A program made the translations under genes and the position numbers. DNA of 64,000 nt, taken from sequence record PV730302.1; one strand, written 5' to 3'. Of the stretch, positions 3,000 to 61,780 are shown one piece after another (position 1 is the stretch's first letter; each line of letters starts with the position of its first letter). The DNA comes from a phage. The notes under the pieces are model-generated. The model saw only the letters and a program-made list of their open reading frames with translations. It was not told the origin of the DNA and ran no database searches.

Positions 3000-3278
3000 T
3001 TAGTCATGGATTCTATTATAAGCCACATCAGCCAAAAGCAAGTCTAATCGCTTATGATAAGAGAACACAAATCTCATTCGCCCATCAGATTTGAACTTGG
3101 ACATAAAGTGGACATAAATGAATCCCTGTTCGACGCATTCGCGCCAAACAGGATGGTCTTTAGCCGGATTTACATCAAATGAGTAATCATGATTCACATG
3201 ACGAATAAACTGGTTTACATGACCATAATCCATTGTAGTGGTAGGACCATAGTCTGAAATTGTATGAACTACAAACAT
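3000..3278 (-). CDS. Hypothetical protein (30.x region)
   Basis: ORF track 3000..3311; start moved to internal ATG at 3278, adjacent to the upstream ORF stop. Confidence 0.35.
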   Translation of the reverse strand: MFVVHTISDYGPTTTMDYGHVNQFIRHVNHDYSFDVNPAKDHPVWRECVEQGFIYVHFMSKFKSDGRMRFVFSYHKRLDLLLADVAYNRIHD

Positions 3279-3279
3279 A

Positions 3280-3918
3280 TTAACCTCGAGCAATCCATTC
3301 AACTGCGGCATTATTACGAAGGGATTCGATGGCTGCGATATCGTCCCATGAATTAACCTTTACGGCTAAATTAGGTTTAAAGTCACGTTCACCACGAGCT
3401 AACCAATAAACTTGGATATCCATGAGAACATTAGATGCAGCATCACAGTGGTGAGCCAAATCATCAACATAAAACTTAATACGTTTACCGTACGTATTTT
3501 TAGCTCTTATGAAGAGGTCTTCTTTTGATTCTGAATGACCACACATCAGAATCTCCTTGAATGCGCCAGGGAACAAAGCATTCAAATTGAATTGTCTATT
3601 CAGCAGGGCATCAATTGAGTCGCCTAGCGCAGTCACGGCTACAAAATCGAAGTCTTTTTTGAGCTTGTTGATATGTTTTAATGCGTCCATGTAAGGAGAC
3701 AGATAACGAATAAAATCTGACTGATTGTACTTCTCGATTAAACGAGCGCCTAATTCATTATCACAATTAAACAGCTCGCCTGGAGATAAGAAACGTTCGT
3801 CCTGAATCATATTCAAAATATGTTCTAAAGGCAAATTATATTTCTGTGCGAAATAAGGCAAGCCGGACTGCCAACTTAAACATACTCCATCGATATCTGT
3901 TAAGATAACTGGTTTCAT
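3280..3918 (-). CDS. HAD-superfamily hydrolase-like protein
   Basis: N-terminal ILTDIDGV (HAD motif I, DxDG) and later YVDD (motif IV-like) seen in the translation. Confidence 0.5.
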   Translation of the reverse strand: MKPVILTDIDGVCLSWQSGLPYFAQKYNLPLEHILNMIQDERFLSPGELFNCDNELGARLIEKYNQSDFIRYLSPYMDALKHINKLKKDFDFVAVTALGDSIDALLNRQFNLNALFPGAFKEILMCGHSESKEDLFIRAKNTYGKRIKFYVDDLAHHCDAASNVLMDIQVYWLARGERDFKPNLAVKVNSWDDIAAIESLRNNAAVEWIARG

Positions 3919-4382
3919 AATAAATCTCTCAATTTGTTTAGGATGTCGATAAACTCTTTTTCAGTTAGTATTGTATCACATTCTGTAAGGTGGCTTGCCA
4001 TAGAATGCTTTAAAACTTTGCCCTTTGTAGCTTGTAACGCATCGCGAAATCCTGGGTTTTGGATCGCTGCTTCAAAATAAGCATTTTCGTACAACTCTTT
4101 CCATGCTGTAGAGTATCTTGAAATGGGAGTTCCAAGCCAGAACAGCGTCCCGCGGTCCGCAGCTCTAGCATAAGCTCTTCCAGTTTGTTGTGCGGCCAGA
4201 CCGGACATCCCAAATATACGTTTTTGTTGTTCAACATTTTTCACCTTACACCCTTGGAGGAATCCTTCGAGTCCTCCAAATTGGATACCATCCATAACGA
4301 AAGGCCATTTAGCAAAGTTACTTAATGCGCATGATGGCCATGGGAAGTTGCTTCTAATTTCTAATTCAGACATCTTTGACAC
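3915..4382 (-). CDS. NADAR/YbiA-like (DUF1768-like) protein, putative ADP-ribose-processing N-glycosidase
   Basis: Translation contains SNFAKWPF..DGIQF..LEGFLQGCK and downstream W...A.....A..Q pattern resembling E. coli YbiA (SNFAAWPI..DGKTW..SEHYFQAQK) from memory; not a computed alignment. Confidence 0.45.
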   Translation of the reverse strand: MSKMSELEIRSNFPWPSCALSNFAKWPFVMDGIQFGGLEGFLQGCKVKNVEQQKRIFGMSGLAAQQTGRAYARAADRGTLFWLGTPISRYSTAWKELYENAYFEAAIQNPGFRDALQATKGKVLKHSMASHLTECDTILTEKEFIDILNKLRDLL

Positions 4383-4581
4383 TTATAATTTCAACATCAG
4401 CCCAATGCCCATAACCCGGCAGACGGTCTTCAATAGATAATCCGCCATCAGATTTCAGCATTTTAATTGTCATGATATAAGGGTCTAAATGGTCTGCCGT
4501 ATGAGGAGAAACATCAGTCACACGATAAGTCACTTCGACCATTTCCGTACCTAATAATTTCTGAATCAATTTCTTAAACAT
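4366..4581 (-). CDS. Hypothetical protein (71 aa)
   Basis: ORF on the early strand, tightly packed with neighbours. Confidence 0.35.
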   Translation of the reverse strand: MFKKLIQKLLGTEMVEVTYRVTDVSPHTADHLDPYIMTIKMLKSDGGLSIEDRLPGYGHWADVEIISVKDV

Positions 4582-4582
4582 A

Positions 4583-4777
4583 TTATCCTCGCTTTAAACA
4601 TTTGATTACAGACAGTTCACCACCCATGCGAACGTCTTCAGTTCCATCGACCCATAAGACGGTGTAGGCTTCTTTAATAGTATCATTACCTAATTTAAAA
4701 GCAGGTAGAACCTTGGAAATCATTCCGGGAATACCTACACCTTTTAACTGAACCGTTTGCGATAAGAATAATTTCAT
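4583..4777 (-). CDS. Hypothetical protein (64 aa)
   Basis: ORF on the early strand, abuts neighbours. Confidence 0.35.
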   Translation of the reverse strand: MKLFLSQTVQLKGVGIPGMISKVLPAFKLGNDTIKEAYTVLWVDGTEDVRMGGELSVIKCLKRG

Positions 4778-4778
4778 G

Positions 4779-5087
4779 TTAGCCTCGGTATTTCATTTGG
4801 AAGCAATGCTGCTCGTTACATTCAATAAAGAACTTGCGGTCTGCAGCAGAAATAATAATTCGTTCGTCTTGACGGGCGTCCGTTTTGATAGATTTCATAT
4901 CATAAGACACTTTATCATACGGTATATAGATTTTATACACGTCGCCATTCTGGGCGAAATCAACACGGAATAGCTCTAGACCTATTAAATCAGTTACAAG
5001 ACTGTTTATAGCATAGAACCCGTCAAGCTGACTAGTAGGCAAACAGTACCATTTACCTTCAATAAACTCTAACATAATTAACCTCAA
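4779..5087 (-). CDS. Hypothetical protein; C-terminus ...HCFQMKYRG
   Basis: ORF track; start uncertain. Confidence 0.35.
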   Translation of the reverse strand: MRLIMLEFIEGKWYCLPTSQLDGFYAINSLVTDLIGLELFRVDFAQNGDVYKIYIPYDKVSYDMKSIKTDARQDERIIISAADRKFFIECNEQHCFQMKYRG

Positions 5088-5371
5088 TATCTCATCTGAA
5101 AGCCGTGTGATTTAACATTACCACCATAGATGTCAGAGGTATTGACTTCACGGGCGACACTTGGGTCGATATTGATATCATGGTTGAGCTTAGTGATTGC
5201 TAGGGTATCACGACCATTAACAGTACGGAATTCTACAGGGCATACAACATCGGCATAAGCCTTAATAGATTCACGAGTAGGTTGTTTGTCGGCAGGAACG
5301 TCTTTACCTGCTTTAGAGAAAACAACTTCACAGAAATTTTTACGAGTATCAAAATAAGTGGTCATAAACAT
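5084..5371 (-). CDS. Hypothetical protein; C-terminus ...HGFQMRY
   Basis: ORF track 5084..5404; start moved to ATG 5371 (MFMTTYF) with SD GAGGA 8 nt upstream; the longer N-terminus would span a tetraloop hairpin. Confidence 0.4.
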   Translation of the reverse strand: MFMTTYFDTRKNFCEVVFSKAGKDVPADKQPTRESIKAYADVVCPVEFRTVNGRDTLAITKLNHDINIDPSVAREVNTSDIYGGNVKSHGFQMRY

Positions 5372-5386
5372 AATATTTTCCTCAAA

Positions 5387-5402
5387 GGAGGCCGAAGCCT
5401 CC
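5387..5402 (-). other. CUUCGG-tetraloop hairpin (ggaggccgaagcctcc)
   Basis: Perfect 6-bp stem with UUCG loop in minus-strand sense, located between ORFs. Confidence 0.5.
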
Positions 5403-5412
5403 ATTTTTAAGA

Positions 5413-5778
5413 TTAGATATCGAATTCGTTCAGAACTACATCAAAGATTGCTTCCAGGTGTTCAGGTTTAGCTCGGTTGCTCAGGATGTGACGAATCCAA
5501 GTTTTAACCAGAAGCTTACGATTAACACCGTTCCAGCAAGGATGGGTACCTAAATCACGTTGACGGAAATCGTCATCTAAAGCGATTTTAAAAGTAGAAC
5601 CTTCCATTGTGATTGAAACCGTAATACCATTTTCAAAGCGCATATAAACGTAGTTAGGAGTCATGCACTGTTCGATTTCGCACACGGTGCCGTTGTTGTG
5701 TTTCCACAGGCAAATAACTTCAGAAGAACCAGCGATACCGTTAGAAACATATTTACGTTCGAAGTTGATGTAGTTCAT
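5413..5778 (-). CDS. Hypothetical protein (121 aa)
   Basis: ORF track; preceded by a conserved promoter/leader cassette. Confidence 0.45.
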   Translation of the reverse strand: MNYINFERKYVSNGIAGSSEVICLWKHNNGTVCEIEQCMTPNYVYMRFENGITVSITMEGSTFKIALDDDFRQRDLGTHPCWNGVNRKLLVKTWIRHILSNRAKPEHLEAIFDVVLNEFDI

Positions 5779-14641: not shown

Positions 14642-15781
14642 TTAAAAATATTTCTTATACGATGCCATTACTTTTTCATCAACATCGTTATCAATTTGTG
14701 CTACAAGGTAAGAACTGATTTCCACTTCCTGAGGAGCAGCCTGTACAGCATCAGAGTTCAGGTATTCGCGAATCCAAGGATATGGATGGCGGGCAGGGGC
14801 ATCAGTAATAGGACATGGTAAGCCACATTGCTTCATACGAGAAACTGTCAGGTAATCGACAAAAGCACCCATGTTCTGAGTATTTAATCCAGGGCAAGTA
14901 CCATCTTTGAACAGGTGAGCGGCCCATTCTTTTTCTTGACGGTTAACTTCCATGAAAATATCAACTGCTTCTTGTTCACACTCTTGAGCAATTTTAACCC
15001 ATTCAGCACCATCAGTACCAAGTTGGAGTTGACGAATAATGTACTGGGTACCTTTAAGGTGAAGCTGTTCATCACGTGCAATGAACTTCATAATCTTAGC
15101 ATTACCTTCCATGATTTCCATGTTTTTATGGAAGTTAAAGGTGCATGCGAAAGATACGTAAAAACGAATAGCTTCCAGGGCGTTGATTACGTGCAGACAG
15201 AGGTAAAGAGAACGCATTAGTTCGTATTTAGCCTGTTTTACGCCTTCGCTAAACTCATGATATTCTTCTAAAGCATTCTGATAAAGGCGAGTTTTCTCGA
15301 TAACGTCATCATAATAACGACCAATGGATTCGGCACGTTTCATGATAGCATCATCTAACAGAATTTCATCAAATACCTTAGATGGGTCTGTATAGAGGTT
15401 ACGCATGATATGGGTATATGAACGAGAGTGAATGGTCTCACTAAAGGTCCATGTAGCCACCCAAGTATCAAGGCTAGGGTCGGAAATCAAGGCTTGGAGT
15501 GCTGCAGAAGGAGCACGACCTTGGATACTATCCAGAAGTGATTGATACTTCAGGTTATTGGTAAAAATATTTTGTTGGAATTGTGGAAGCTTATTAAATT
15601 GAGCAGCATCCATCATCAAGTTGACTTCTTCTGGACGCCAGAAAAAACTCAACTGCTTTTCACAAAGCTCTTCGAATACTTTATGACGTTGGATATCATA
15701 ACGGGCAATACCCAATCCTGAACCAAAGAACATCGGCTCGACTAAAACATCAACTGGGGTAGTATTAAAAACTGTAGACAT
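14642..15781 (-). CDS. nrdB: Ribonucleotide reductase small subunit (aerobic class Ia), uninterrupted
   Basis: 379-aa continuous ORF with R2-like sequence; no intron-sized interruption. Confidence 0.9.
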   Translation of the reverse strand: MSTVFNTTPVDVLVEPMFFGSGLGIARYDIQRHKVFEELCEKQLSFFWRPEEVNLMMDAAQFNKLPQFQQNIFTNNLKYQSLLDSIQGRAPSAALQALISDPSLDTWVATWTFSETIHSRSYTHIMRNLYTDPSKVFDEILLDDAIMKRAESIGRYYDDVIEKTRLYQNALEEYHEFSEGVKQAKYELMRSLYLCLHVINALEAIRFYVSFACTFNFHKNMEIMEGNAKIMKFIARDEQLHLKGTQYIIRQLQLGTDGAEWVKIAQECEQEAVDIFMEVNRQEKEWAAHLFKDGTCPGLNTQNMGAFVDYLTVSRMKQCGLPCPITDAPARHPYPWIREYLNSDAVQAAPQEVEISSYLVAQIDNDVDEKVMASYKKYF

Positions 15782-15816
15782 ATTATTCTCATTTATTATG
15801 GGTTTAAATTATTTTA

Positions 15817-16608
15817 TCACATATTATGTATAAGCACTTCAGTCTGGAATGACACACCTTTTGATACTTTTTGATATCTAGTTTCAAAATATTCAATTTT
15901 GAAATTGTTGGATAGGGCCCAATCTTTTAGAATGTTGTTATTAGTAACATCTGATAAATTATTAGTTATAATAAATTTAGACTTTGACTGTTTAATTTTA
16001 TCTAACAATTCTAATTCATCCTTTTCTTCCCATCCTGAATATTTAAATTTGGTAGAAAGATATGGTGGGTCGATGAATAAGTTCTTGTTTTCAAAATCTA
16101 AATCTCTGAATGATTTATTTGAAAAACTTAACAGATGTTGTCTATTTTTAAAAGCGGCGAATTTATCCTGTTGCGATTTATTAAAAGAAGTTCTAGAGTA
16201 TTTGGCTCTATCCGCAAAAGAAGCTATATACTTATCATCTTTAGAAAATTTTAACATTGAACTGAATGCAAATAAATGTAGAACATACAAATACAGTCCG
16301 TTTTTAGTTTTATCGTATTCCTTTGCCAGAGAGTAAAACGGTTTAGGGTCCACATCATTTAAGCCGAAATCATCAATGATTTGGACAACATCGTTCATTG
16401 ATGAAGTTTTCATCGCGTTGTACATATTGATGACATGATAATTAATATCATTACACTCAACTCGTCGCCCACAATTCATAGAAAATCCGAGGCCACCACA
16501 AAAGGCATCTAAAACTGTATTATCATCAAAGCCCAATACAAATCTATTAATAAAATCCATGTATTTGTGTTTTGAACCCGGGTAAGTTATTGCCGAACAG
16601 TATTTCAT
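15817..16608 (-). CDS. dam: Dam-like DNA N6-adenine methyltransferase
   Basis: Motifs YPGSK, FCGGLGFS (AdoMet binding) and DPPY (catalytic), with overall resemblance to remembered T4 Dam; start set at the second ATG (16608), which has GAGGAG SD; ORF track gives 16620. Confidence 0.75.
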   Translation of the reverse strand: MKYCSAITYPGSKHKYMDFINRFVLGFDDNTVLDAFCGGLGFSMNCGRRVECNDINYHVINMYNAMKTSSMNDVVQIIDDFGLNDVDPKPFYSLAKEYDKTKNGLYLYVLHLFAFSSMLKFSKDDKYIASFADRAKYSRTSFNKSQQDKFAAFKNRQHLLSFSNKSFRDLDFENKNLFIDPPYLSTKFKYSGWEEKDELELLDKIKQSKSKFIITNNLSDVTNNNILKDWALSNNFKIEYFETRYQKVSKGVSFQTEVLIHNM

Positions 16609-16662
16609 ATTACTCCTCATTTGTTAGTGACTCGTCCGTGAGTCAATTATAATCAGATTTTA

Positions 16663-18918
16663 TTAAAGCTTACATGCTGCACAATCGTCGGCTTTAGGAG
16701 TTTCGATTTCATAGTCATCAGTACCAGAGCCATCACGGGTATTATGGTAATAAAGGTTCTTACCACCGTAGTACCAGAAATACAACAGGTCATCAAGCAT
16801 TACTGACATCGGAACTTTTCCTTTTGGGAAAATCTGCGGGTCATAATATGTATTAGCTGATGCCGATTGACACACCCATTTCAACGCTATTGCCACTTGG
16901 GTAAGATAAGGTTTATTACCTTTCTTAGCAAGGGTCCAAGCGTAATCGTAGAGTCCTTGGTTATGTTCTACATTAGGAACTACCTGACGGAAGTTACCTT
17001 CTTTAGATTCTTTAATACTTACCGGACCGCGTGGAGGTTCGATACCGTTTGTAGAGTTGGAAACCTGGCTGCTTGATTCACACGGCATAAGTGCTGATAA
17101 TGTGCTATTACGGATGCCATGTTTAGCCAAGTCTTCCCGCAACGACGTCCAGTCACAAACATAGTTAGGGGCTGCGATTTGGTCAATCTTTTTATTGTAC
17201 CAGTCGATAGGTAATTCGCCTCGAGACCATTTAGTGTCTGAATAATACTCGCAAGGTCCTTTTTCTTCGGCCAACTTGATTGATGCTCGGATAAGTCCAT
17301 ATTGTAATCTCTCAAACAGTTCATGAGTTAAATCATTAGCGTCTTCATAAGAAGCAAAGTTGCTTGCCAACCAAGCGGCGTAGTTAGTAACACCAACACC
17401 CAGATTACGACGTTTCTTGGCCTTCAGAGCTTCAGGAACAGGATAATCTTGGTAGTCCAATAGGTTATCAAGTGCACGTACCTGGACTTCAGCGAGCTCG
17501 TTGATTTTGTCTTGGTCCTGCCAATCGAAGTTATCCAATACGAATGCAGACAACGTACACAAACCAATTTCAGCGTCCGGACTATTCACGTCAGTAGTAG
17601 GGATAGCAATTTCACAACACAAGTTGCTCTGTCGAATAGGAGCTTTTTCACGAATAAATGGTGTGAAGTTGTTAGTGTTATCAACGAACTGAGGATAAAT
17701 TCGTGCAGTGCCTGAGCGTTCGGTCATGAACAATTCGAAAAGGTCGCGTGCTTTAATACGTTTCTTACGAATACTAGGGTCTTTTTCTGCGGCTTCATAC
17801 AATTCACGGAAACGGTCTTGGTCTTCGAAATAAGAATAATAAAGCTCACCACCCATTTCGTGAGGACTAAACAACGTGATGTAATCATTTTTACCGAAAC
17901 GTTCCATCATAAGGTCGTTCATCTGGATTCCGTAGTCCATATGGCGAATACGGTTCTCATCGACACCTTTGTTGTTTTTCAGAACGAGCAGATTTTCAAC
18001 TTCCAAATGCCAAATAGGATAATAAGCAGTAGCAGCGCCGCCACGGATTCCACCTTGTGAACATGATTTAACAGCAGTCTGGAAATGTTTCCAGAATGGA
18101 ATAACGCCAGTATGTTTGACTTCACCCATGCCAATACGAGAACCTTCAGCACGAATCATACCAACGTTGATACCAATACCTGCACGTTTAGAAATGTATT
18201 CAATTATTGAGTTAGCAGTTTTGTTAATAGATTTCAGCGAGTCGCCTGCTTCAATAACCACACAAGAACTAAATTGACGAGTCGGTGTACGTGCTCCAGC
18301 CATAATAGGAGTTGGTAATGAAACCTGACGGGTACTTACAGCATCATAAAAACGAATAATATGTGCCAAACGATTACCTGGCTCTTCTTGGTGTAAGGCC
18401 ATGCCAATACACATGATAGCGAACTGAGGGGTTTCGTAGATTTTACCCGTGGTCTTATCTTTAACCAGATATTTCTCTTTCAGCTGCATCGCACCTGCAT
18501 AGGTCAATTCAAAGTCACGTTCATGCTTGATATGAGATTCTAAGAAAGTAATTTCTTCTGCAGAATATCGAGACAGCAATTCAGGGTCATATTTACCTTC
18601 GTTAACACAATAGGAAATATGGTCGATAAAGCTACGTGGTTCGAACTGGCCATAAACTTCTTTACGCAGTGCAAACATCAATTGCTTTGCAGCAACATAT
18701 TGGTAATCAGGTTCCTCAACCGAAATAAGGTTGGCTGCGACCTTAACAGTCAGATTCTGGATATCTTTGGTAGTCATACCATCACGAAGATGAGATTTGA
18801 TTTCTTCGTATAATTCATAGGGGTCGATTTGGGTTCCTTCACAGCCCCAAGTCAGAACTTTAATAATTTTTTGTGCGTCAAAATCTTGGGATACACCACT
18901 ACTTTTTTGTACTTGCAT
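16663..18918 (-). CDS. nrdA: Ribonucleotide reductase large subunit (class Ia)
   Basis: 751-aa ORF with ATP-cone N-terminus and conserved catalytic core (NLCCEI, C-terminal CAACKL-type tail). Confidence 0.95.
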   Translation of the reverse strand: MQVQKSSGVSQDFDAQKIIKVLTWGCEGTQIDPYELYEEIKSHLRDGMTTKDIQNLTVKVAANLISVEEPDYQYVAAKQLMFALRKEVYGQFEPRSFIDHISYCVNEGKYDPELLSRYSAEEITFLESHIKHERDFELTYAGAMQLKEKYLVKDKTTGKIYETPQFAIMCIGMALHQEEPGNRLAHIIRFYDAVSTRQVSLPTPIMAGARTPTRQFSSCVVIEAGDSLKSINKTANSIIEYISKRAGIGINVGMIRAEGSRIGMGEVKHTGVIPFWKHFQTAVKSCSQGGIRGGAATAYYPIWHLEVENLLVLKNNKGVDENRIRHMDYGIQMNDLMMERFGKNDYITLFSPHEMGGELYYSYFEDQDRFRELYEAAEKDPSIRKKRIKARDLFELFMTERSGTARIYPQFVDNTNNFTPFIREKAPIRQSNLCCEIAIPTTDVNSPDAEIGLCTLSAFVLDNFDWQDQDKINELAEVQVRALDNLLDYQDYPVPEALKAKKRRNLGVGVTNYAAWLASNFASYEDANDLTHELFERLQYGLIRASIKLAEEKGPCEYYSDTKWSRGELPIDWYNKKIDQIAAPNYVCDWTSLREDLAKHGIRNSTLSALMPCESSSQVSNSTNGIEPPRGPVSIKESKEGNFRQVVPNVEHNQGLYDYAWTLAKKGNKPYLTQVAIALKWVCQSASANTYYDPQIFPKGKVPMSVMLDDLLYFWYYGGKNLYYHNTRDGSGTDDYEIETPKADDCAACKL

Positions 18919-22925: not shown

Positions 22926-23831
22926 TTATAGACCAGCTAACAGGTCGTCCAGACCATCGTCATCAGAAGGACTTACTGACGGCTCAGGAGTAGTGGAACG
23001 AGTCGGTGTAGACGGTTTGGAATCATATGCATCAAGGTCTGCACTGAATGCGTCCAGGTCATCACCAATCTTATCAGCGGCTGCAGAAGCTTTAGCGGCA
23101 GCACCACCAAGAGCAGCTGTACCAACAACTTTCTTAAACTTGGCTTCGTTAGTTTCGAATGATTTGAAATCGAGCAGTTTAGAAAGGTCGTGCATTTCTT
23201 CCATCAATTTAGCTTGGTAAGCTTCATCATTGATGTTAGGAATTTCAGACTGACCCATGAATTTGGAATCGTCGTAGTTCTTGAAGTCGCCAACTTTCTT
23301 AGATTTCAGTACGAAGTTCGCACCATCAAACGGACATGTTACGTCAATCGGAACTTCACCGATATCGGTATCAACTTCAACCATCTGGTTGATTTTATCC
23401 ATAATTTTCTGACCGAAACGGAATTTAAACACTTTACCTTCGTTAGCAGGCACTGCACTATCCTTAATAACAAGGATGTTAGCCCAGAAGGAAGTTTTAC
23501 GTTTCATCAGTTTGTATTCGGCATTATTAGTATTAAAGGTATCATTCTGGTTCATGTATTTACATACAGGACATGAATCGAAATCACCGTGAGTAGACGT
23601 ACAGTTTTCAATATACCATTGACCATTTTTCTTAAAGCCGTGGTTAACGAGCTTAATGAATGGAGATGGATTTTCTTCGTTTTTCGAAGGTAGGAAACGA
23701 ATTACCGCAGTACCAACGCCATTGTCATCTTTCAATTTCCATTCAGCTTTATCATCGGAAGAGAAAGAAGAACCACCTTTCATTGCAGACAGTTGAGCAG
23801 CCAGTTGGGAAGGGTCTTTACGTTTAAACAT
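22926..23831 (-). CDS. 32: Single-stranded DNA-binding protein gp32
   Basis: [13 protein letters not shown]...[11 protein letters not shown]...ILVIKD...GKVFKFRFG and acidic C-terminus match remembered T4 gp32. Confidence 0.95.
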
Positions 23832-23921
23832 TTTATTTACCTTAGCAGATTTTAGCAGTTGTATTTTATTAACAGTTTTTAACAGATTGAGTTAGTATAT
23901 TAACACAGTTGGTTTGAAGCA

Positions 23922-24575
23922 TTAAAACTTACAAGATTTGATAGTTTCAATGAACAATTTACGAGCTTCTAAATTATCGATTATAAGAATTTTCTTATAA
24001 GCATTTAATTTAGTCGAATACTTAGACCACACTAAATCGTTGGTCTGTTCATCATGTTTATTTATTATATCCATAAATGAATCAAGCAAAATAAACGTTT
24101 CGAATGAAATAACATTCGATTGAAGGAGCTTAAAAATATAGCTCGAGTTAACTTTTTTATTATAATCAAAAATTTCAGAAAGCGCTTTAACTTCCACTTT
24201 CTTACTAAAATAATAAATGTTTTTGATATCATCCTCAAAAACTTGTTTTATTCTTTTAAGTCTACCGATATATTCTCGGTAAAAGACTAAGGCGTCAGCA
24301 TCACTGATGTCGCCAATCCACGCGTCTTGGTTAGCCACCAAGTTACTCATGAAGATAAGAGCAAGCTCTTTCAAAGTGTATTTATCACTCAATTTCTCAA
24401 AGAAATATTTGTCACGACGTTTTTGATAAGCCGTATCAGAGATTCGCATGACCCAGTTATATTTGATAACATCGTATTTGGCATTGAAGTGATGTTTGAG
24501 CATTAAGTATAGTGAATATACGCTCTTACCATTCACCATACGGTTATTGTTTGGTGGCATGCGAATCTTAATCAT
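23922..24575 (-). CDS. 59: Helicase loader gp59
   Basis: 217 aa; MIKIRMP...DVIKYNW.MR.SD.AYQKRRDKYFF.KLS.KY.LKELALIF.SNLVANQDAWIGDISDADALVFYREYIGRLK matches remembered T4 gp59. Confidence 0.9.
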   Translation of the reverse strand: MIKIRMPPNNNRMVNGKSVYSLYLMLKHHFNAKYDVIKYNWVMRISDTAYQKRRDKYFFEKLSDKYTLKELALIFMSNLVANQDAWIGDISDADALVFYREYIGRLKRIKQVFEDDIKNIYYFSKKVEVKALSEIFDYNKKVNSSYIFKLLQSNVISFETFILLDSFMDIINKHDEQTNDLVWSKYSTKLNAYKKILIIDNLEARKLFIETIKSCKF

Positions 24576-24874
24576 AACAAGAAATCCAGAGTATTAGTTT
24601 TTTGCGTTCGGGCCATTGAAGGTCGAAGCAAGTTATCATCAATGGCTTCGTTCATAATTTTATCAATAATTCCTGCAGGCAAATAACGAGCAAAGTTACC
24701 TTCAGGGATGCTGTTCTCTTCCAACCATGCGGTAGCCGCTTCGAGGTAACTACAACCTTCAGCCTCAACAAAGGCCTCAATATCAAGGCCATTCTGTTGT
24801 TTGTTTACCAATACATGGACAGGTTCGGAAGCGGTATTAACCGCTCCATCAAAATCATTCAAAGATTGTGTCAT
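24572..24874 (-). CDS. 33: Late transcription co-activator gp33
   Basis: 100 aa, position between 59 and dsbA; C-terminal ...TNTLDFLL consistent with remembered gp33. Confidence 0.65.
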   Translation of the reverse strand: MTQSLNDFDGAVNTASEPVHVLVNKQQNGLDIEAFVEAEGCSYLEAATAWLEENSIPEGNFARYLPAGIIDKIMNEAIDDNLLRPSMARTQKTNTLDFLL

Positions 24875-25134: not shown

Positions 25135-26082
25135 TTAATAAAAATCAGCTACTGTAGCAGTTAGTTTAGACAAACCAGATTTAACGAAATAAGGATAGAC
25201 TTTAGATTTCGAAGGTTTGTTATACGTATTATATCTTTCAGTAATTAAAGCAACAATATCATCTGGAATATAGTCCATATCAATTAAGATTTGGTTTTCA
25301 CAGAAACGTTCATATTGTTCTTCAGTAAGAAGTGTTTTAATTATATCACGGTCGTAATAATTCAGAGCAATCGCTTCAAGTTCCCTGGCACGAGTGCTAG
25401 GAGTACGTTCGCCTTCAACCATTGTCAACCAGTAGTCACCACGAACTTTAATACTCGCAACGTTATCCTTGCGGTCGCCTTTAACAACCTTAGTTACACA
25501 ATCAAGCAATGCATCGCCGGATTTTGTTTTGACGAATTTTTTCTGCATTGGAGACCATTGTTTTACCCCAGGGAATTTATGAAGTTGGGTAAAGTCACCA
25601 TCAGAAGAACCAATCATAACAGGGTGACCTAAAGCCGTAAGGATGCGAGTCAATACAGCAATATGGTCATCAGCTTCGATTGTATCGATATTCATAACAA
25701 TATAAGGCATGTTTTGTTCCAGTTCATCAACAATAATATGCATTGCTGTGAATAAACCTTCCCAATCAAATGGTGATTCGTCACGTGCCTTAGCACGGTT
25801 TTTCTTATAATAGGAAGAATAACGACGACGCCAATAACCTGATTTGGAGTTATCAACACAAATAACCAGTTGGTTGTAACCTTGTTTTTTAAAGTCTTTA
25901 ATATTTTTCTTAATTGAATTCAACACGAGGTGTCGAAGCATTGCTGTAGTTACTTTAGGAAATCCAGCATTTTCGCCAAATTCTTGGAATGCTGCCGCCA
26001 TAATGATTTGGCTGAAATCTAAGAGTAAAAATCCATCTTTTTGTTGGTCTTCTTCAGGAAGTAAAAAATCTAAATCGTTCAT
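25135..26082 (-). CDS. rnh: RNase H / 5'-3' exonuclease (FEN family)
   Basis: Translation ...NSKSGYWRR...YKKNR...DW.......II.....YIVM.ID..EADDHIAVL...SSDGDFTQLHK.P.VKQWSPM.KK matches remembered T4 RNase H. Confidence 0.9.
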   Translation of the reverse strand: MNDLDFLLPEEDQQKDGFLLLDFSQIIMAAAFQEFGENAGFPKVTTAMLRHLVLNSIKKNIKDFKKQGYNQLVICVDNSKSGYWRRRYSSYYKKNRAKARDESPFDWEGLFTAMHIIVDELEQNMPYIVMNIDTIEADDHIAVLTRILTALGHPVMIGSSDGDFTQLHKFPGVKQWSPMQKKFVKTKSGDALLDCVTKVVKGDRKDNVASIKVRGDYWLTMVEGERTPSTRARELEAIALNYYDRDIIKTLLTEEQYERFCENQILIDMDYIPDDIVALITERYNTYNKPSKSKVYPYFVKSGLSKLTATVADFY

Positions 26083-26189: not shown

Positions 26190-29100
26190 ATGGCTGATAT
26201 TTTAAAACCTGCATTCCGTGCTACATCCGGACTCGATGCTGCGGGCGAGAAAGTTATCAATGTTGCCAAAGCCGATTACAATGTATTAGATGATGGCGTC
26301 AACGTTGAATTCTTTATAGATGAGAACACCATCCAGGCGTACGACGAGACGCGCGGATATAAGAATGGGTTTGCCGTAATCCATGACCAACGTATCTGGG
26401 TTGCTCAACGCGATATCAATGCTCCTGCAGGAACTTTTACTCCAGGCTATTGGACTGCTACCCGTACTGACCCTAAATGGATTACCGTAGCGTCTCCTAC
26501 ACGCCAGCTGGCTTCCGGTGAATATATTGCGGTGGATTCCGCTGCTAGCTTTACTACATTTACCCTGCCTCCGAACCCTACTGATGGCGATACCGTTGTA
26601 ATTAAAGATATCGGTGGACGTGTTGGGTATAACGAAATAAAGGTCCAATCTAGTTCTGCTCCTGGTGGCGGTAACCAGAAAATTGTTCGTTTTGGTAATC
26701 AGTTTACTGAGACCTTAATTACGAAGCCTTTTTCTTATAACATGCTTATCTTTGCTAACCGTCTTTGGCATTTCTGGGAAGCTGGTAACGAAGAACGCGG
26801 TATTCGTGTAGAACCGAACATGGCCCAGTTCCAATCACAAGCAGGTGATAACGTTCTCCGTCGTTATACTTCAGGTGCAGTGATTAAGTTTACTCTTCCT
26901 AAGTATGCAAACCAAGGCGATATGATTAAAACCGTTGATATTGATGGTTTAGGAAGTAAATTCCACTTAATCGTTGAAACGTTTGATGCTTCATCTTCAT
27001 TAGGTAAGCTTGGTCAGCATAGCATGGAATTCCGTACCTCTGGTGATGGATTCTTTGTTTATAACTCTACCGAAAAATTATGGTATGTTTGGGACGGGGA
27101 CCGTCAAACTCGTTTACGAGTAATTCGTGACGATGTTGAGCTCTTGGCTAATGAAAGTGTTATTGTTTTCGGCCCTAATAATACAACACCTCAGACGATT
27201 AATATCACATTACCTACAGGCGTAGCCCAGGGCGATGTCGTTAAAATCGCATTAAACTATCTTCGTAAAGCTCAGACGGTAAATATTAAGGCCGCTGTAG
27301 GAGATAAAATAGCTTCTTCAGTTCAATTGCTCCAGTTCCCTAAACGTTCTGAATATCCGCCGGATACCGAATGGGTTCTGAATGATGTATTGACCTTCAA
27401 TGGTAACTTAAGTTATACTCCTGTTATTGAACTGAGTTATATCGAAGACACCACTACAGGTGGCAAATATTGGGTTGTTGCTCAGAACGTTCCTACTGTA
27501 GAACGTGTGGATTCTAAGGATGATTTAACCCGTGCTCGTCTTGGTGTTATTGCTCTGGCGTCACAGACCCAAGCAAACGTTGACCATGAAAATAATCCTG
27601 AAAAAGAACTGGCTATCACCCCACAGACTTTAGCTAATCGTGTAGCGACTGAATCACGTCGTGGTATTGCTCGTATTGCTACAACGGCTCAGGTAAACCA
27701 GAATACCGGATTTGCATTCCAGGACGATTTGATTATTTCTCCTAAGAAATTAAACGAACGTACTGCTACCGAAACCCGTCGTGGTGTGGCTGAAATTGCT
27801 ACGCAACAGGAAACTGATGCAGGCGTTGATGATACAACCATTATCACTCCTAAGAAGCTACAGACGCGCCAGGGAACTGAAAGCCTGTCAGGTATAGTAA
27901 AATACGTATCCACCACTGGAACCACTCCTGCGACTTCTAGAGCAACTGTAGGTACTAACGTTTATAATAAGAACACAACTACTTTAGTTATTTCTCCTAA
28001 AGCTTTGGACCAATATAAAGCTAACTATGAGAACCAAGGTGCTGTATATCTTGCTACGCAAGCCGAAGTTAATGCGGGTGCTACTAACCCTGGTTTTAGT
28101 AACTCGGTTGTTACACCTGAAACATTAGGTGCTCGTCGTGCTTCTGATACTAATCACGGTTTAATTGAAATTGCTACGCAAGCAGAGACTGATACTGGAA
28201 CTGATTATACTCGTGCGGTAACGCCTAAGACGTTAAATGACAGGAATGCTACTCAAACACTTACTGGTATTGCTCGTATTGGTACTCAAGTAGAATTTGA
28301 TGCAGGTGTATTAGATAATGTTATTTCAACTCCGTTGAAAATTAAAACACGTTTTAATAATACTGCTAGAACTTCTGTCTCAGCAGCCAGTGGTTTGATT
28401 GAATCAGGAACCTTATGGAACCATTATACACTAGATATCCGTGAAGCAAGTAATACTCAACGTGGTACGGCTCGTTTGGCTACCCAAACTGAAGTTAATA
28501 CTGGTACTGATGACAAAACAATCATCACTCCACTTAAGCTTCAAGCTAAAAAGGCTACCGAAAACGCTGAAGGTATTATCCAACTCGCTACTCAGGCTGA
28601 AGTTATTGCTGGTACGGTAAGTAATAAAGCGTTTAGTCCTAAGCATTACAAATATATCGTCCAACAGGAAAAATCCTGGGAAGCTACTTCTGCTCGTAGA
28701 GGATATGTTAAATTAACCACAGGTACAGCCACTTGGGAAGGTGATGATACTAATGGTTCTGTTGCTAACCTGGCTAAATTTGAAGATAATGGCTTTGCTA
28801 TTTCCCCTCTTCAAATGAATACGGCATTAACTCACTATCTTCCGATTAAAGGTAAGGCTTTTGACTCTGATAAATTGGACGGATTTGATTCTGCTCAGTT
28901 TATTCGTCGTGATATAGCACAAGATATTAATGCTAATATGACATTCAAACAACCTGTTAGAATTGAAAGTACTTTAGCGGTTACCGGTGCGGTTAATTTG
29001 AGTGGCTCTGTTATTTCAAATAATACTACATTAACCGGTTCTACTACAGTCAATAGCAATTCTACTGTAGGCGCTTTGAATTACATTGAGTTCACTTCAC

Positions 29101-56345: not shown

Positions 56346-56483
56346 GATATTTTTCTCATCTTACGGACGATTAGTTGATATGTCTATAGTATCACGTTAC
56401 TAGATAAAGTAAACACTTTTTTGCTTTAAATTTTCGACGGTATAATGAATCAAGGACTTTGCCTTTCAATTAAACCGGGCGCT

Positions 56484-59941: not shown

Positions 59942-60463
59942 TTAATACCCTCGGTCCTGGCGAGCAAAGTTCTCGGCATTTTTCAGGTAATACAGTTTAA
60001 AGATTTCTTCAGCAGTCAGTCCAAGACCTTGGAACATATTCAGAACAAAGTGCAGAATATCAATCATTTCGAATTTAATTTCGAGCTGGTCTTCAGGAGA
60101 CAAATCGTTAATCAGGGTTTCACGACGTTCAGCATGTTGAGCTTTCCAAGGCTTCCATACAGCGCTCGCATCTTTTTCGCCATTGCTCATGCCACCAAGA
60201 GAAGTCAGAAGTTCGCGGAATTCATCATCAATATAATCTTTCTGATTGCGCAACCAATCAACAACTTCACCTGCAGTAGCCAAGTCATCAGGATGACGGT
60301 TATATTCAGGTTTATCTTTAGCCAAACGGACCTGTAATGATTTCTGCATATCAAGCATAACCTGCAGAGGGTCTTTATCTTCGTGAATCAGAGCATTAAA
60401 ATAAGCTTCCTCAGCTTTATCAACACCAGCAATAAGTTGTGAGCATTCGTTAAAGTGTGCCAT
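59942..60463 (-). CDS. 56: dCTP pyrophosphatase gp56 (MazG-like)
   Basis: MAHFNEC..LI.GVDKA...Y...........DPLQVMLDMQ and C-terminal EIFKLYYLKNAENFARQDRGY match remembered T4 gp56. Confidence 0.85.
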   Translation of the reverse strand: MAHFNECSQLIAGVDKAEEAYFNALIHEDKDPLQVMLDMQKSLQVRLAKDKPEYNRHPDDLATAGEVVDWLRNQKDYIDDEFRELLTSLGGMSNGEKDASAVWKPWKAQHAERRETLINDLSPEDQLEIKFEMIDILHFVLNMFQGLGLTAEEIFKLYYLKNAENFARQDRGY

Positions 60464-60554
60464 TATATTTTTTCCTTTTCAATTCATTAGTAAGTTAGAT
60501 AATTATAAACTGTTAGATTAAAGCGAATAAATATTAATTTAACAGGAGGATAAC

Positions 60555-60755
60555 ATGGGCAGTATTTTTTACCAAATCTGGAAATTGGCCGAAAAGAAAG
60601 ACAGGAAAATGATGTTAGGTTTTCTTGCGCTAGACGTATTCCTTTGGAATCTTCTAGTAGTCCCTGTAGCCGCTAGCCAAGGGATAATTTTACCAGCGGT
60701 TACAATGGAACACGTATTAAGCATAATTGGATTCTTTAGCGGAGTTCCTGCCTAA
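60555..60755 (+). CDS. Orphan small two-TM membrane protein (66 aa), opposite strand to neighbours
   Basis: Consensus SD AGGAGG 6 nt before the ATG; two hydrophobic segments; lies in the otherwise non-coding 56-61 interval. May not be expressed. Confidence 0.3.
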   Translation: MGSIFYQIWKLAEKKDRKMMLGFLALDVFLWNLLVVPVAASQGIILPAVTMEHVLSIIGFFSGVPA

Positions 60756-61780
60756 ATTTTAGAATATTTTGAAAGTCTCATTTTTGCCATTAAACCTTGG
60801 GCTATATTAGCTTTCATATATGCCAGTACATCATTTATATCAGCTTTATCTTTCATAATCATATCATTTATATCTTTAGAAGGCCATGGAGCCTTGTCCC
60901 AGAATAGAACCCTTTCGCCAGCATCAACTAATCGTTGCATACGCTTAATTGTGTCAGGATGGCGGGGTTCATTGTCCATTACCCAGGCACGTGTTTCTTT
61001 ACAAGGAACCATAGCCAAGTCCAATGACCCACCAGTAATTGCTATTGCATTCGGTACGAATAATGAATCGATAGGACCTTCCATTACCCACACCAACTGA
61101 CGTTCGTCAACTGTATCCATTCCATATATTTTTGTAGCTTGGTCGTGAGCTTTTATTGTAATATATTTTTGTGGAGCATCTTTACGTAAGGCCCGACCCT
61201 GAAAACTTTCAATTTGTTTATTCTTATTGAAAATTGGAATAACCAAACGAGGCTCAGGCATTTCTTTAGAATAGGTTCCTGGATTCACAGAGTTAACTAA
61301 TGCAGGCCATTCTTTAGTAAACCATAGCCGATTCCATTTGTTTTCAGGAATGCAACGTAACGTCACATATTTTATAATAGGATGGTCCTTCGGCATTCTA
61401 TCTAATCGTTCACAGAAATTAAGCTTTTCGATGACAGGCATCTTAGCTTTAATTTTTTCAGATATCTCCACCTTAGGTGCAGCTTGTCTCCCGAACGATT
61501 GCTCTTTATGTTTCTCAAGAATATATTCACGATATAAATCAGGCTCGTATTCGTATAGATACTTCTTAATTCCTGCTGAATAGTCACAGTTAAAACAGTG
61601 CAGCATTACGGAGCCGTCAGTAGCCGGATAGGCCCAAAAACGAGCTTTGTTCTCATCTTTTTGGGAGTCACCGCATACACGACAACGGCAATTTAATTTA
61701 AAATCACTACCAGTTACTTGTCTGAATTTAGGTTGGTAATTCAAGGCACGTACAGCAAATTCTCTATCGACATATGACAT
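60752..61780 (-). CDS. 61: DNA primase gp61
   Basis: 342 aa; N-terminal zinc ribbon (CRCRVCGDS...HCFNC) plus TOPRIM-like core; position as in T4. Confidence 0.85.
   Translation of the reverse strand: MSYVDREFAVRALNYQPKFRQVTGSDFKLNCRCRVCGDSQKDENKARFWAYPATDGSVMLHCFNCDYSAGIKKYLYEYEPDLYREYILEKHKEQSFGRQAAPKVEISEKIKAKMPVIEKLNFCERLDRMPKDHPIIKYVTLRCIPENKWNRLWFTKEWPALVNSVNPGTYSKEMPEPRLVIPIFNKNKQIESFQGRALRKDAPQKYITIKAHDQATKIYGMDTVDERQLVWVMEGPIDSLFVPNAIAITGGSLDLAMVPCKETRAWVMDNEPRHPDTIKRMQRLVDAGERVLFWDKAPWPSKDINDMIMKDKADINDVLAYMKANIAQGLMAKMRLSKYSKI

Follow-up and report, generated by a model that had tools for sequence, protein, structure and literature searches.

Why does a Dam-like adenine methyltransferase gene lie between nrdA and nrdB in a T-even phage in which the interval between genes 56 and 61, the place of dam in T4, holds no methylase? 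The question was raised by sequence record PV730302.1, of which a window of 64,000 nt was analysed; it belongs to a T-even phage that resembles JS98 (genus Dhakavirus), and its 5.1-kb nrd region is 94–98% identical to those of phages 04086, QL01, WG01 and JS98. The predicted junction methylase (jMT) is interpreted here as a second, isolated and small side-branch of the Dam family and not as a moved copy of dam. It is probably a long-standing, rarely retained accessory gene of T-even phages at the nrdA–nrdB junction, held by descent and exchanged or lost via recombination. The minus strand carries, in this order, alc, rnlA, denA, nrdB, an open reading frame (ORF) of 267 amino acids (aa), nrdA, a DUF4326 gene and td. 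The elements that define the gene and its flanks are the following.

14642..15781, minus strand: nrdB, flank and recombination arm
15817..16608, minus strand: junction methyltransferase coding sequence, 263 aa and TGA stop, start ATG at 16608 (MKYCS…)
16663..18918, minus strand: nrdA, flank and recombination arm
16480..16503, minus strand: motif I, FCGGLGFS, the FxGxG loop that binds S-adenosylmethionine (AdoMet), invariant in five aligned clade members
16219..16269, minus strand: predicted DNA-recognition β-hairpin, residues 114–130, AFSSMLKFSKDDKYIAS, from alignment to T4 Dam and E. coli Dam (EcoDam)
16060..16071, minus strand: catalytic motif IV, DPPY, from the alignment and family representatives

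The product matches PF02086 (D12 N6-adenine methyltransferase) as its sole Pfam domain, with 71.3 bits against a cut-off of 22 (E 1.4e-19) and over profile positions 1–251 of 253. In the numbering of the 267-aa ORF, FCGGLG occupies residues 40–45 and DPPY residues 184–187, and the target-recognition region is located between them. The Asp and the second Pro of DPPY are present in all of 143 other family representatives, the first Pro in 135 and the Tyr in 140. The 267-aa version (15817..16620, minus strand) was returned by the ORF caller from an in-frame upstream ATG at 16620, which falls within the Shine-Dalgarno (SD) region; ATG 16608 is conserved in all alleles and has GAGGAG ahead of it. 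The initial annotation had placed a dam-like methyltransferase in the nrdB–nrdA junction, and this assignment is confirmed by the PF02086 match, FCGGLGFS, DPPY and the two flanking genes. No homing nuclease (HNH, GIY-YIG or other) was found in the cassette by Pfam and an ORF check of 15782–16662. The same segment holds no second ORF of at least 40 aa in the gene direction, and its only other ORF (15899..16336, plus strand) is nested on the opposite strand within the methylase ORF. No cognate restriction endonuclease adjoins the methylase, nrdA and nrdB being its immediate neighbours at every locus examined. As judged from the sequence, the junction gene is a solitary (orphan) α-class D12-family N6-adenine DNA methyltransferase.

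T4 Dam and the junction protein are colinear over 240 aa with 32% identity (E 1e-29), and T4 Dam residues 110–130 line up with the hairpin region. The resemblance to T4 Dam throughout, as it had been described, thus holds for colinearity, but the identity is only 32%. T4 Dam structures were the only PDB matches at E < 0.01, and E. coli Dam and DpnM were absent from them. Between junction proteins and canonical T-even Dam proteins, identity is 27–36%, whereas the canonical proteins reach 54–75% with one another (T4 versus MX01 75%, a Klebsiella phage 60%, RB43 54%). In a neighbour-joining tree with 200 bootstraps, the junction proteins form one clade (100%) that is sister to a methyltransferase of an Alcaligenes phage (97%), and the canonical T-even Dam clade (95%) stands apart from this grouping. 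The NCBIfam Dam model TIGR00571 gives the junction protein 68.7 bits, below the cut-off of 114.85 and far from the 239.5 of T4 Dam. A HMMER scan of 1.84 billion representatives recovered one cluster of the junction lineage, with the next match at most 35% identical. The gene thus lies outside the canonical T-even dam group both by clade and by locus (not between 56 and 61). Its own clade, the 27–36% identity, the TIGR00571 score and the lone cluster in the scan argue for a second, isolated lineage.

T4 Dam (M.EcoT4Dam; PDB 1Q0S, 1YFJ, 1YFL) is one of the nearest known counterparts. Like jMT, it is an α-class D12 methyltransferase of similar length that shows the same succession of motif I, recognition hairpin and DPPY, and a solitary phage-encoded product of an AT-rich accessory gene that is patchy among T-even phages. 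Besides its identity, clade, model score and nrdA–nrdB locus, jMT differs from T4 Dam in a 5-residue insertion after the hairpin, and the window allele carries Lys for T4 Arg116 and Ser for T4 Pro126. EcoDam (PDB 2G1P) belongs to the same Pfam family and shares DPPY and the aromatic intercalator (Tyr119 in EcoDam, Phe in jMT), but it is only ~16% identical, and its Arg124 is matched by Lys in the window allele. The nearest relative outside the jMT clade, with 37–40% identity and a common ILDAFCGGLGF context, is the 'Dam' of Alcaligenes phage Afa-NA1 (XUE01680.1). Unlike jMT, it is encoded in a non-T-even 78-kb phage beside topoisomerase genes, and unlike the window allele it retains Arg at the Arg124-equivalent position. 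GenBank records already label the junction gene 'dam'; no publication describing the jMT lineage, its locus or Dhakavirus methylases was found in the literature searched.

The anatomy of the insertion is given by the following elements between nrdA and nrdB and by the further copies of the promoter-like motif.

16646..16669, minus strand: middle-promoter-like GCTTTA-N12-TATAAT, overlapping the nrdA stop; it precedes the methylase here and nrdB in empty-site phages
16628..16645, minus strand: leader (intergenic) hairpin TGACTCACGGACGAGTCA, right after the -10-like TATAAT; ΔG -7.5 kcal/mol, z -3.4
16606..16622, minus strand: left copy of the duplicated initiation region, AAATGAGGAGTAATATG, with SD GAGGAG and the methylase ATG
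15779..15794, minus strand: right copy of the duplicated initiation region, AAATGAGAATAATATG, with the ribosome-binding site (RBS) and the nrdB ATG
16646–16669, 25228–25251, 28423–28447 and 60502–60524, minus strand, and 56423–56446, plus strand: copies of GCTTYA-N11–13-TATAAT in the window

In phages with an empty site, the spacer runs from the nrdA stop through GCTTTA-N12-TATAAT, the hairpin TGACTCAYGGAYGAGTCA and CTAACAAATGAGAATAAYATG to nrdB. In the window, this entire leader stands ahead of the methylase, and the methylase stop is followed by a 35-bp spacer (15782..15816) that ends in a second copy of AAATGAGAATAATATG and then by nrdB. The JS98 intergenic region aligns to both ends of the cassette with a 20-bp overlap. 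The leader before the methylase and the second initiation copy before nrdB place the cassette precisely at the start codon of nrdB, between the two copies of a 16–17-bp duplication. The hairpin TGACTCACGGACGAGTCA is kept in empty and occupied Dhakavirus sites and in the Tequatrovirus carriers, and the Klebsiella-type version bears one compensatory A:T to G:C change (TGGCTC…GAGCC). GCTTYA-N11–13-TATAAT, which resembles MotA-dependent middle promoters of T4, is matched 5 times in the window against 0.1 expected, and a middle promoter is known just upstream of nrdB in T4 (PMC2988022). A σ70 promoter and terminator scan returned nothing on the methylase strand. Presumably, the middle transcript of nrdB here has the methylase as its first cistron.

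Among the records that match the nrd region, about 9 of 853 (~1%) carry the gene.

CF-SP2 (Salmonella phage, OM912978): Gelderlandvirus per record, cassette DNA 99% identical to the window
fDHCT2: record without a genus, resembles Dhakavirus (92–98% identity to the window from td to rnlA), cassette 93%
vB_Eco_BGP (BGP): Tequatrovirus per record, cassette 91%
236Ecol005PP: Tequatrovirus per record, cassette ~80%
T4_ev240: Tequatrovirus per record, cassette ~80%
ECO07P2: T4-like, cassette ~80%
EP02SG: T4-like, cassette ~80%
vB_Eco_NR1: T4-like, cassette ~80%
PhiKpNIH-6: Marfavirus per record, cassette 73%, gene cut by the record ends

In all 9 GenBank carriers and in 7 metagenomic loci, the gene is located between nrdA and nrdB; every metagenomic contig with a homologue of at least 72% identity has it there. 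An IMG/VR scan with the clade alignment returned no further carriers. The range covers at least three genera (Dhakavirus, Tequatrovirus and the Marfavirus-like Klebsiella phages) and a Salmonella-phage mosaic. Most Dhakaviruses (JS98, JS10, QL01, WG01, IME08 and 04086) have an empty site with a spacer of ~52 bp, including the closest relative, 04086, in which the flanks are 98% identical. No cassette remnants were detected in the empty sites of JS98 and 04086 or in the nrdB.1/mobE segment of T4 (all E > 3). According to the initial annotation, an ancestral arrangement would be indicated if close T-even relatives routinely carried the gene at this junction within the same flanks. Such relatives do exist, but at about 9 of 853 they are rare and not routine.

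The age of the residence was assessed from synonymous divergence (dS). Between the window and fDHCT2, dS is 0.30 for the methylase and 0.295/0.265 for nrdA/nrdB; between the window and the Tequatrovirus carriers, it is 0.97–1.16 (1.0–1.2) for the methylase and 1.25/1.02–1.15 for nrdA/nrdB; and between the window and the Klebsiella-type locus, it is 1.6 and 1.8/1.3. Segment identities parallel these values, and each genus has its own allele within its own flanks, which suggests long residence at the junction with frequent loss rather than recent import. The ORF is intact in all 16 loci, and the ratio of nonsynonymous to synonymous divergence (dN/dS) of 0.04–0.15 indicates purifying selection on the methylase.

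Two carriers depart from this co-divergence and bear traces of exchange. Over 17262–15814, a stretch comprising the cassette and ~600 bp of the nrdA 3´ end, CF-SP2 and the window share 98–100% (95–100% for the segment from the nrdA 3´ part through the methylase to the nrdB 5´ part); further out, identity falls to 93–97%, then to 83–86%, and to ~72–74% at denA and rnlA. This pattern identifies CF-SP2 as carrying a graded patch of Dhakavirus DNA in another genus, a mosaic across genera and hosts. In BGP, the flanks and intergenic regions are of the Tequatrovirus type (97–100% to other Tequatrovirus carriers), and the 5´ two-thirds of the methylase ORF are of the Dhakavirus type (88–97% to the window, 67–80% to the Tequatrovirus type), which amounts to an allelic replacement inside the cassette. 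In the DPPY-proximal 3´ third of the gene (16113..15964, minus strand), the DNA of Dhakavirus-type and Tequatrovirus-type alleles is 93–96% identical. Elsewhere in the methylase these alleles share 67–80%, and ~80% in the flanks. The cassette itself thus appears mosaic.

The nrdA–nrdB junction is an established site of mobE in T4 and hef in phage U5; MobE nicks nrdB in its 5´ part, and co-conversion reaches the 3´ end of nrdA and the 5´ end of nrdB (PMC2988022, PMC2790892). The initial annotation had invoked a recombination hotspot here, which accords with this literature on mobE, hef and MobE nicking and with the CF-SP2 and BGP mosaics. Like jMT, the mobE and hef cassettes are single-gene insertions at this intergenic site, have the orientation of nrdA and nrdB, lean on neighbouring expression signals and are polymorphic in presence among close relatives. 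The fall of flank identity with distance from the cassette in CF-SP2 also follows the manner of a co-conversion tract. In contrast to these genes, jMT encodes a methyltransferase and not a nuclease and hence cannot initiate its own transfer. No sequence similarity between jMT and T4 nrdB.1/mobE was detected. That the methylase might shield nrdB against cutting by MobE or Hef was entertained as a further idea and set aside as unsupported. As separate observations on this region, an endonuclease-bearing intron lies in nrdB of BGP, adjoining the methylase (locus L005, 1390–2199), and an endonuclease gene splits nrdA in 236Ecol005PP (locus L006, 4870–5580).

The proposed course of events would be as follows. 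The cassette comprises the ORF, a ~22-bp spacer and an RBS/ATG duplicate and is set at the nrdB start codon, so that the promoter-like element, leader hairpin and RBS of nrdB would now serve the methylase, with nrdB as the next cistron. Like T4 Dam, the enzyme presumably acts during replication and methylates adenine in the phage DNA, and this modification may protect against nucleases sensitive to adenine methylation. The cassette, having no mobility gene, would persist by vertical descent and would be moved or lost when co-infecting phages recombine homologously in the nrdA and nrdB arms. MobE, Hef and I-TevIII, homing endonucleases known to break this region, could thereby both disperse and remove the cassette. 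The finding shows Dam-family methylases of two distinct lineages in T-even phages, each at a variable locus of its own. A known landing site of homing endonucleases also houses non-nuclease cargo and exchanges it across genera and hosts (phages of E. coli, Salmonella and Klebsiella). The database annotations that name the junction gene simply 'dam' are hereby corrected, and the general understanding of phage methylases is unchanged.

Several points weigh against reading jMT as a long-resident, Dam-like methylase. Values of dS of 1 or more are near saturation, co-conversion of the flanks could mimic co-divergence over short distances, and the GC content at third codon positions of the methylase (0.20–0.28) is not shifted towards host genomes. 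The TIGR00571 score lies below the cut-off for Dam. The fold assignment depends on homology to T4 Dam, and the AlphaFold2 model, calculated from an alignment of 5 close sequences, was unusable (predicted local distance difference test score 41.8). In the hairpin, Lys120 of the window allele occupies the position of EcoDam Arg124 and T4 Dam Arg116, and the Pro134-equivalent is Ser. Finally, the genome is nearly free of GATC, so that a strict GATC methylase would have only ~25–30 targets per genome.

The locus at which T4 carries dam bears on the first of the rival explanations and is laid out in the window as follows.

59942..60463, minus strand: gene 56
60464..60751: 56–61 interval, 288 bp, without a methylase
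60752..61780, minus strand: gene 61

Relocation of a T4 dam orthologue from 56–61 to nrdA–nrdB by recombination, which the initial annotation had offered as one explanation, is highly improbable. The T4 map from which it was argued, nrdB–nrdB.1–mobE–nrdA and 56–dam–61, is correct. The junction gene and dam share a broad family, T4 Dam is the best PDB match, a tblastn search with T4 Dam over the whole window matched the junction gene only, and 56–61 is without dam both here and in 7 of the 8 full-length GenBank carriers, among them T4_ev240 and 236Ecol005PP. The contrast between the two loci nevertheless carries little weight, since a dam-less 56–61 interval is standard in Dhakavirus and the majority state in Tequatrovirus (~64% of records, with dam in 179 of ~500). 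Canonical dam is found at 56–61 in MX01 (Dhakavirus) and in BGP (Tequatrovirus), which has both methylase genes, and the two proteins fall into separate, well-supported clades at 27–36% identity rather than the 54–75% seen among T-even Dam proteins. Mutual exclusion of jMT and canonical dam, considered as a separate candidate, was rejected: 7 of 8 full-length carriers lack dam, but the background is similar and the difference is not significant, because ~64% of Tequatrovirus and most Dhakavirus records are dam-less as well. Recent horizontal acquisition from an unrelated AT-rich donor, bacterium or phage, with a chance landing in a permissive intergenic site, is less remote and still quite doubtful. 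The methylase ORF has a GC content of 30.7%, whereas the whole window has 39.6%, nrdA 41.7% and nrdB 40.5%. This dip of ~10 points is equalled by only 0.5% of 792-bp windows; the GC profile upholds the earlier impression that the gene is AT-richer than its nrd flanks. Canonical dam is equally AT-rich (27.7% GC in T4, 30.9% in MX01), and AT-richness therefore does not mark the gene as foreign. Genomes sharing 98% identity differ in the occupancy of the site, and the nearest outside relative, at 37–40% identity, lies in the non-T-even Alcaligenes phage. Against a recent arrival stand the same site in at least three genera and one mosaic, dS values that match the flanks and the absence of any donor-like homologue above 40% identity in the 1.84 billion representatives or IMG/VR. 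The independent acquisition of a second-lineage methylase that had been suggested is thus upheld as to the second lineage but not as to acquisition by this phage. The view of the gene as a passenger, decaying or without function, that stayed behind in a recombination hotspot would suit its rarity (~1% of T-even records) and easy loss; with the ORF intact in 16 of 16 loci, dN/dS of 0.04–0.15 and invariant catalytic motifs, it is scarcely credible.

A further possibility, that the Dhakavirus-type allele has shifted from GATC and that the locus is an exchangeable 'specificity cassette' among T-even phages, is tentative and on the unlikely side. By alignment, the contact residues of EcoDam correspond to those of T4 Dam as Y119 to F111, N120 to S112, L122 to M114, R124 to R116, P134 to P126 and Y138 to R130. 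In EcoDam, the first and key contact with the guanine of base pair four comes from R124, and R124A loses discrimination there (PMC4417163). At this position, Lys is found in the alleles of the window, CF-SP2, fDHCT2 and BGP and Arg in the Tequatrovirus-type and Klebsiella-type alleles; the 143 other family representatives have Arg in 120 cases and Lys in 6. Lys is also able to contact guanine, and the Phe, Ser and Met contacts and the Arg130-equivalent are conserved in the window allele. The Pro134 position is occupied by Ser or Ala in every junction allele, each of which also has the 5-residue insertion after the hairpin; in the family, the Pro134 position is variable (Pro 68, Ser 25 and Ala 21 of 143). 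On the Dhakavirus-type branch, the hairpin has changed faster than the rest of the protein: its 17 residues took 6 of the 17 substitutions, and the remaining 246 residues took 11 (Fisher p = 2e-4, for a region picked after looking at the alignment). The import of the Lys-type allele into BGP, a phage that already possesses a canonical GATC Dam, fits the proposal, although BGP is a single example. The near absence of GATC from the genome also fits a shift, but MX01 tolerates a canonical Dam in a GATC-poor genome. GATC specificity is plausible for the Arg-type alleles, whose target is probably GATC or a near relative; that of the Lys-type window allele is uncertain. The stronger proposal, that the window allele is no longer a GATC methylase and that the junction is a fixed locus where genera swap alleles of differing specificity, a recombinational 'specificity cassette' against host restriction, is unlikelier again. 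If it held, the nrdA–nrdB junction would be a locus of specificity exchange in the contest with host restriction, as in BGP.

The depletion of GATC was quantified over the window, in which the sites are located as follows.

1132, 2233, 4062, 8867, 9303, 12890, 39607, 45148, 49907 and 62697: GATC sites

The 10 observed sites compare with 202 expected under a second-order Markov model (observed/expected 0.05, ~20-fold), the lowest ratio of all 256 tetramers; the next-lowest, CTAG, is at 0.67. Other Dhakavirus loci are similarly poor in GATC with or without the methylase (observed/expected: JS98 1/23, 04086 1/24, fDHCT2 3/26, MX01 0/9.6). T4 has 15/51, and T4 and other Tequatroviruses range at ratios of ~0.2–0.4. 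Nothing specific on GATC avoidance in JS98-like phages was found in the literature. The scarcity of GATC mildly favours a changed or additional role of the methylase; the canonical Dam kept by MX01, a Dhakavirus with an equally GATC-poor genome, counters the argument from target scarcity.

The 56–61 interval had been called empty, which is correct as to a methylase; it does contain an ORF and a promoter-like motif. The 66-aa hydrophobic ORF (60555..60755, plus strand) lies on the opposite strand, overlaps the end of gene 61 and is conserved in MX01, BGP, 236Ecol005PP and T4, where it is unannotated in record NC_000866. It is probably a real gene for a small membrane protein. The middle-promoter-like motif at 60502..60524 (minus strand) is located upstream of gene 56, in the place that corresponds to T4 oriA. 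In some Dhakaviruses (IME08 and ABTNLS3), the 56–61 gap, the dam site of T4, is taken up by a mobE-like endonuclease gene, and the occupancy of the two variable sites, 56–61 and nrdA–nrdB, by endonuclease genes and methylases is reciprocal. In 04086 (OR842557), nrdA is annotated as two overlapping coding sequences (3119–4045 and 4038–5543), which reflects either a frameshift or an error in sequencing. Comparable AT-richness is reached in the window by only one other island (~23451–24673), which contains a gene 59-like ORF (23922..24575) beside gene 32 and appears ordinary.

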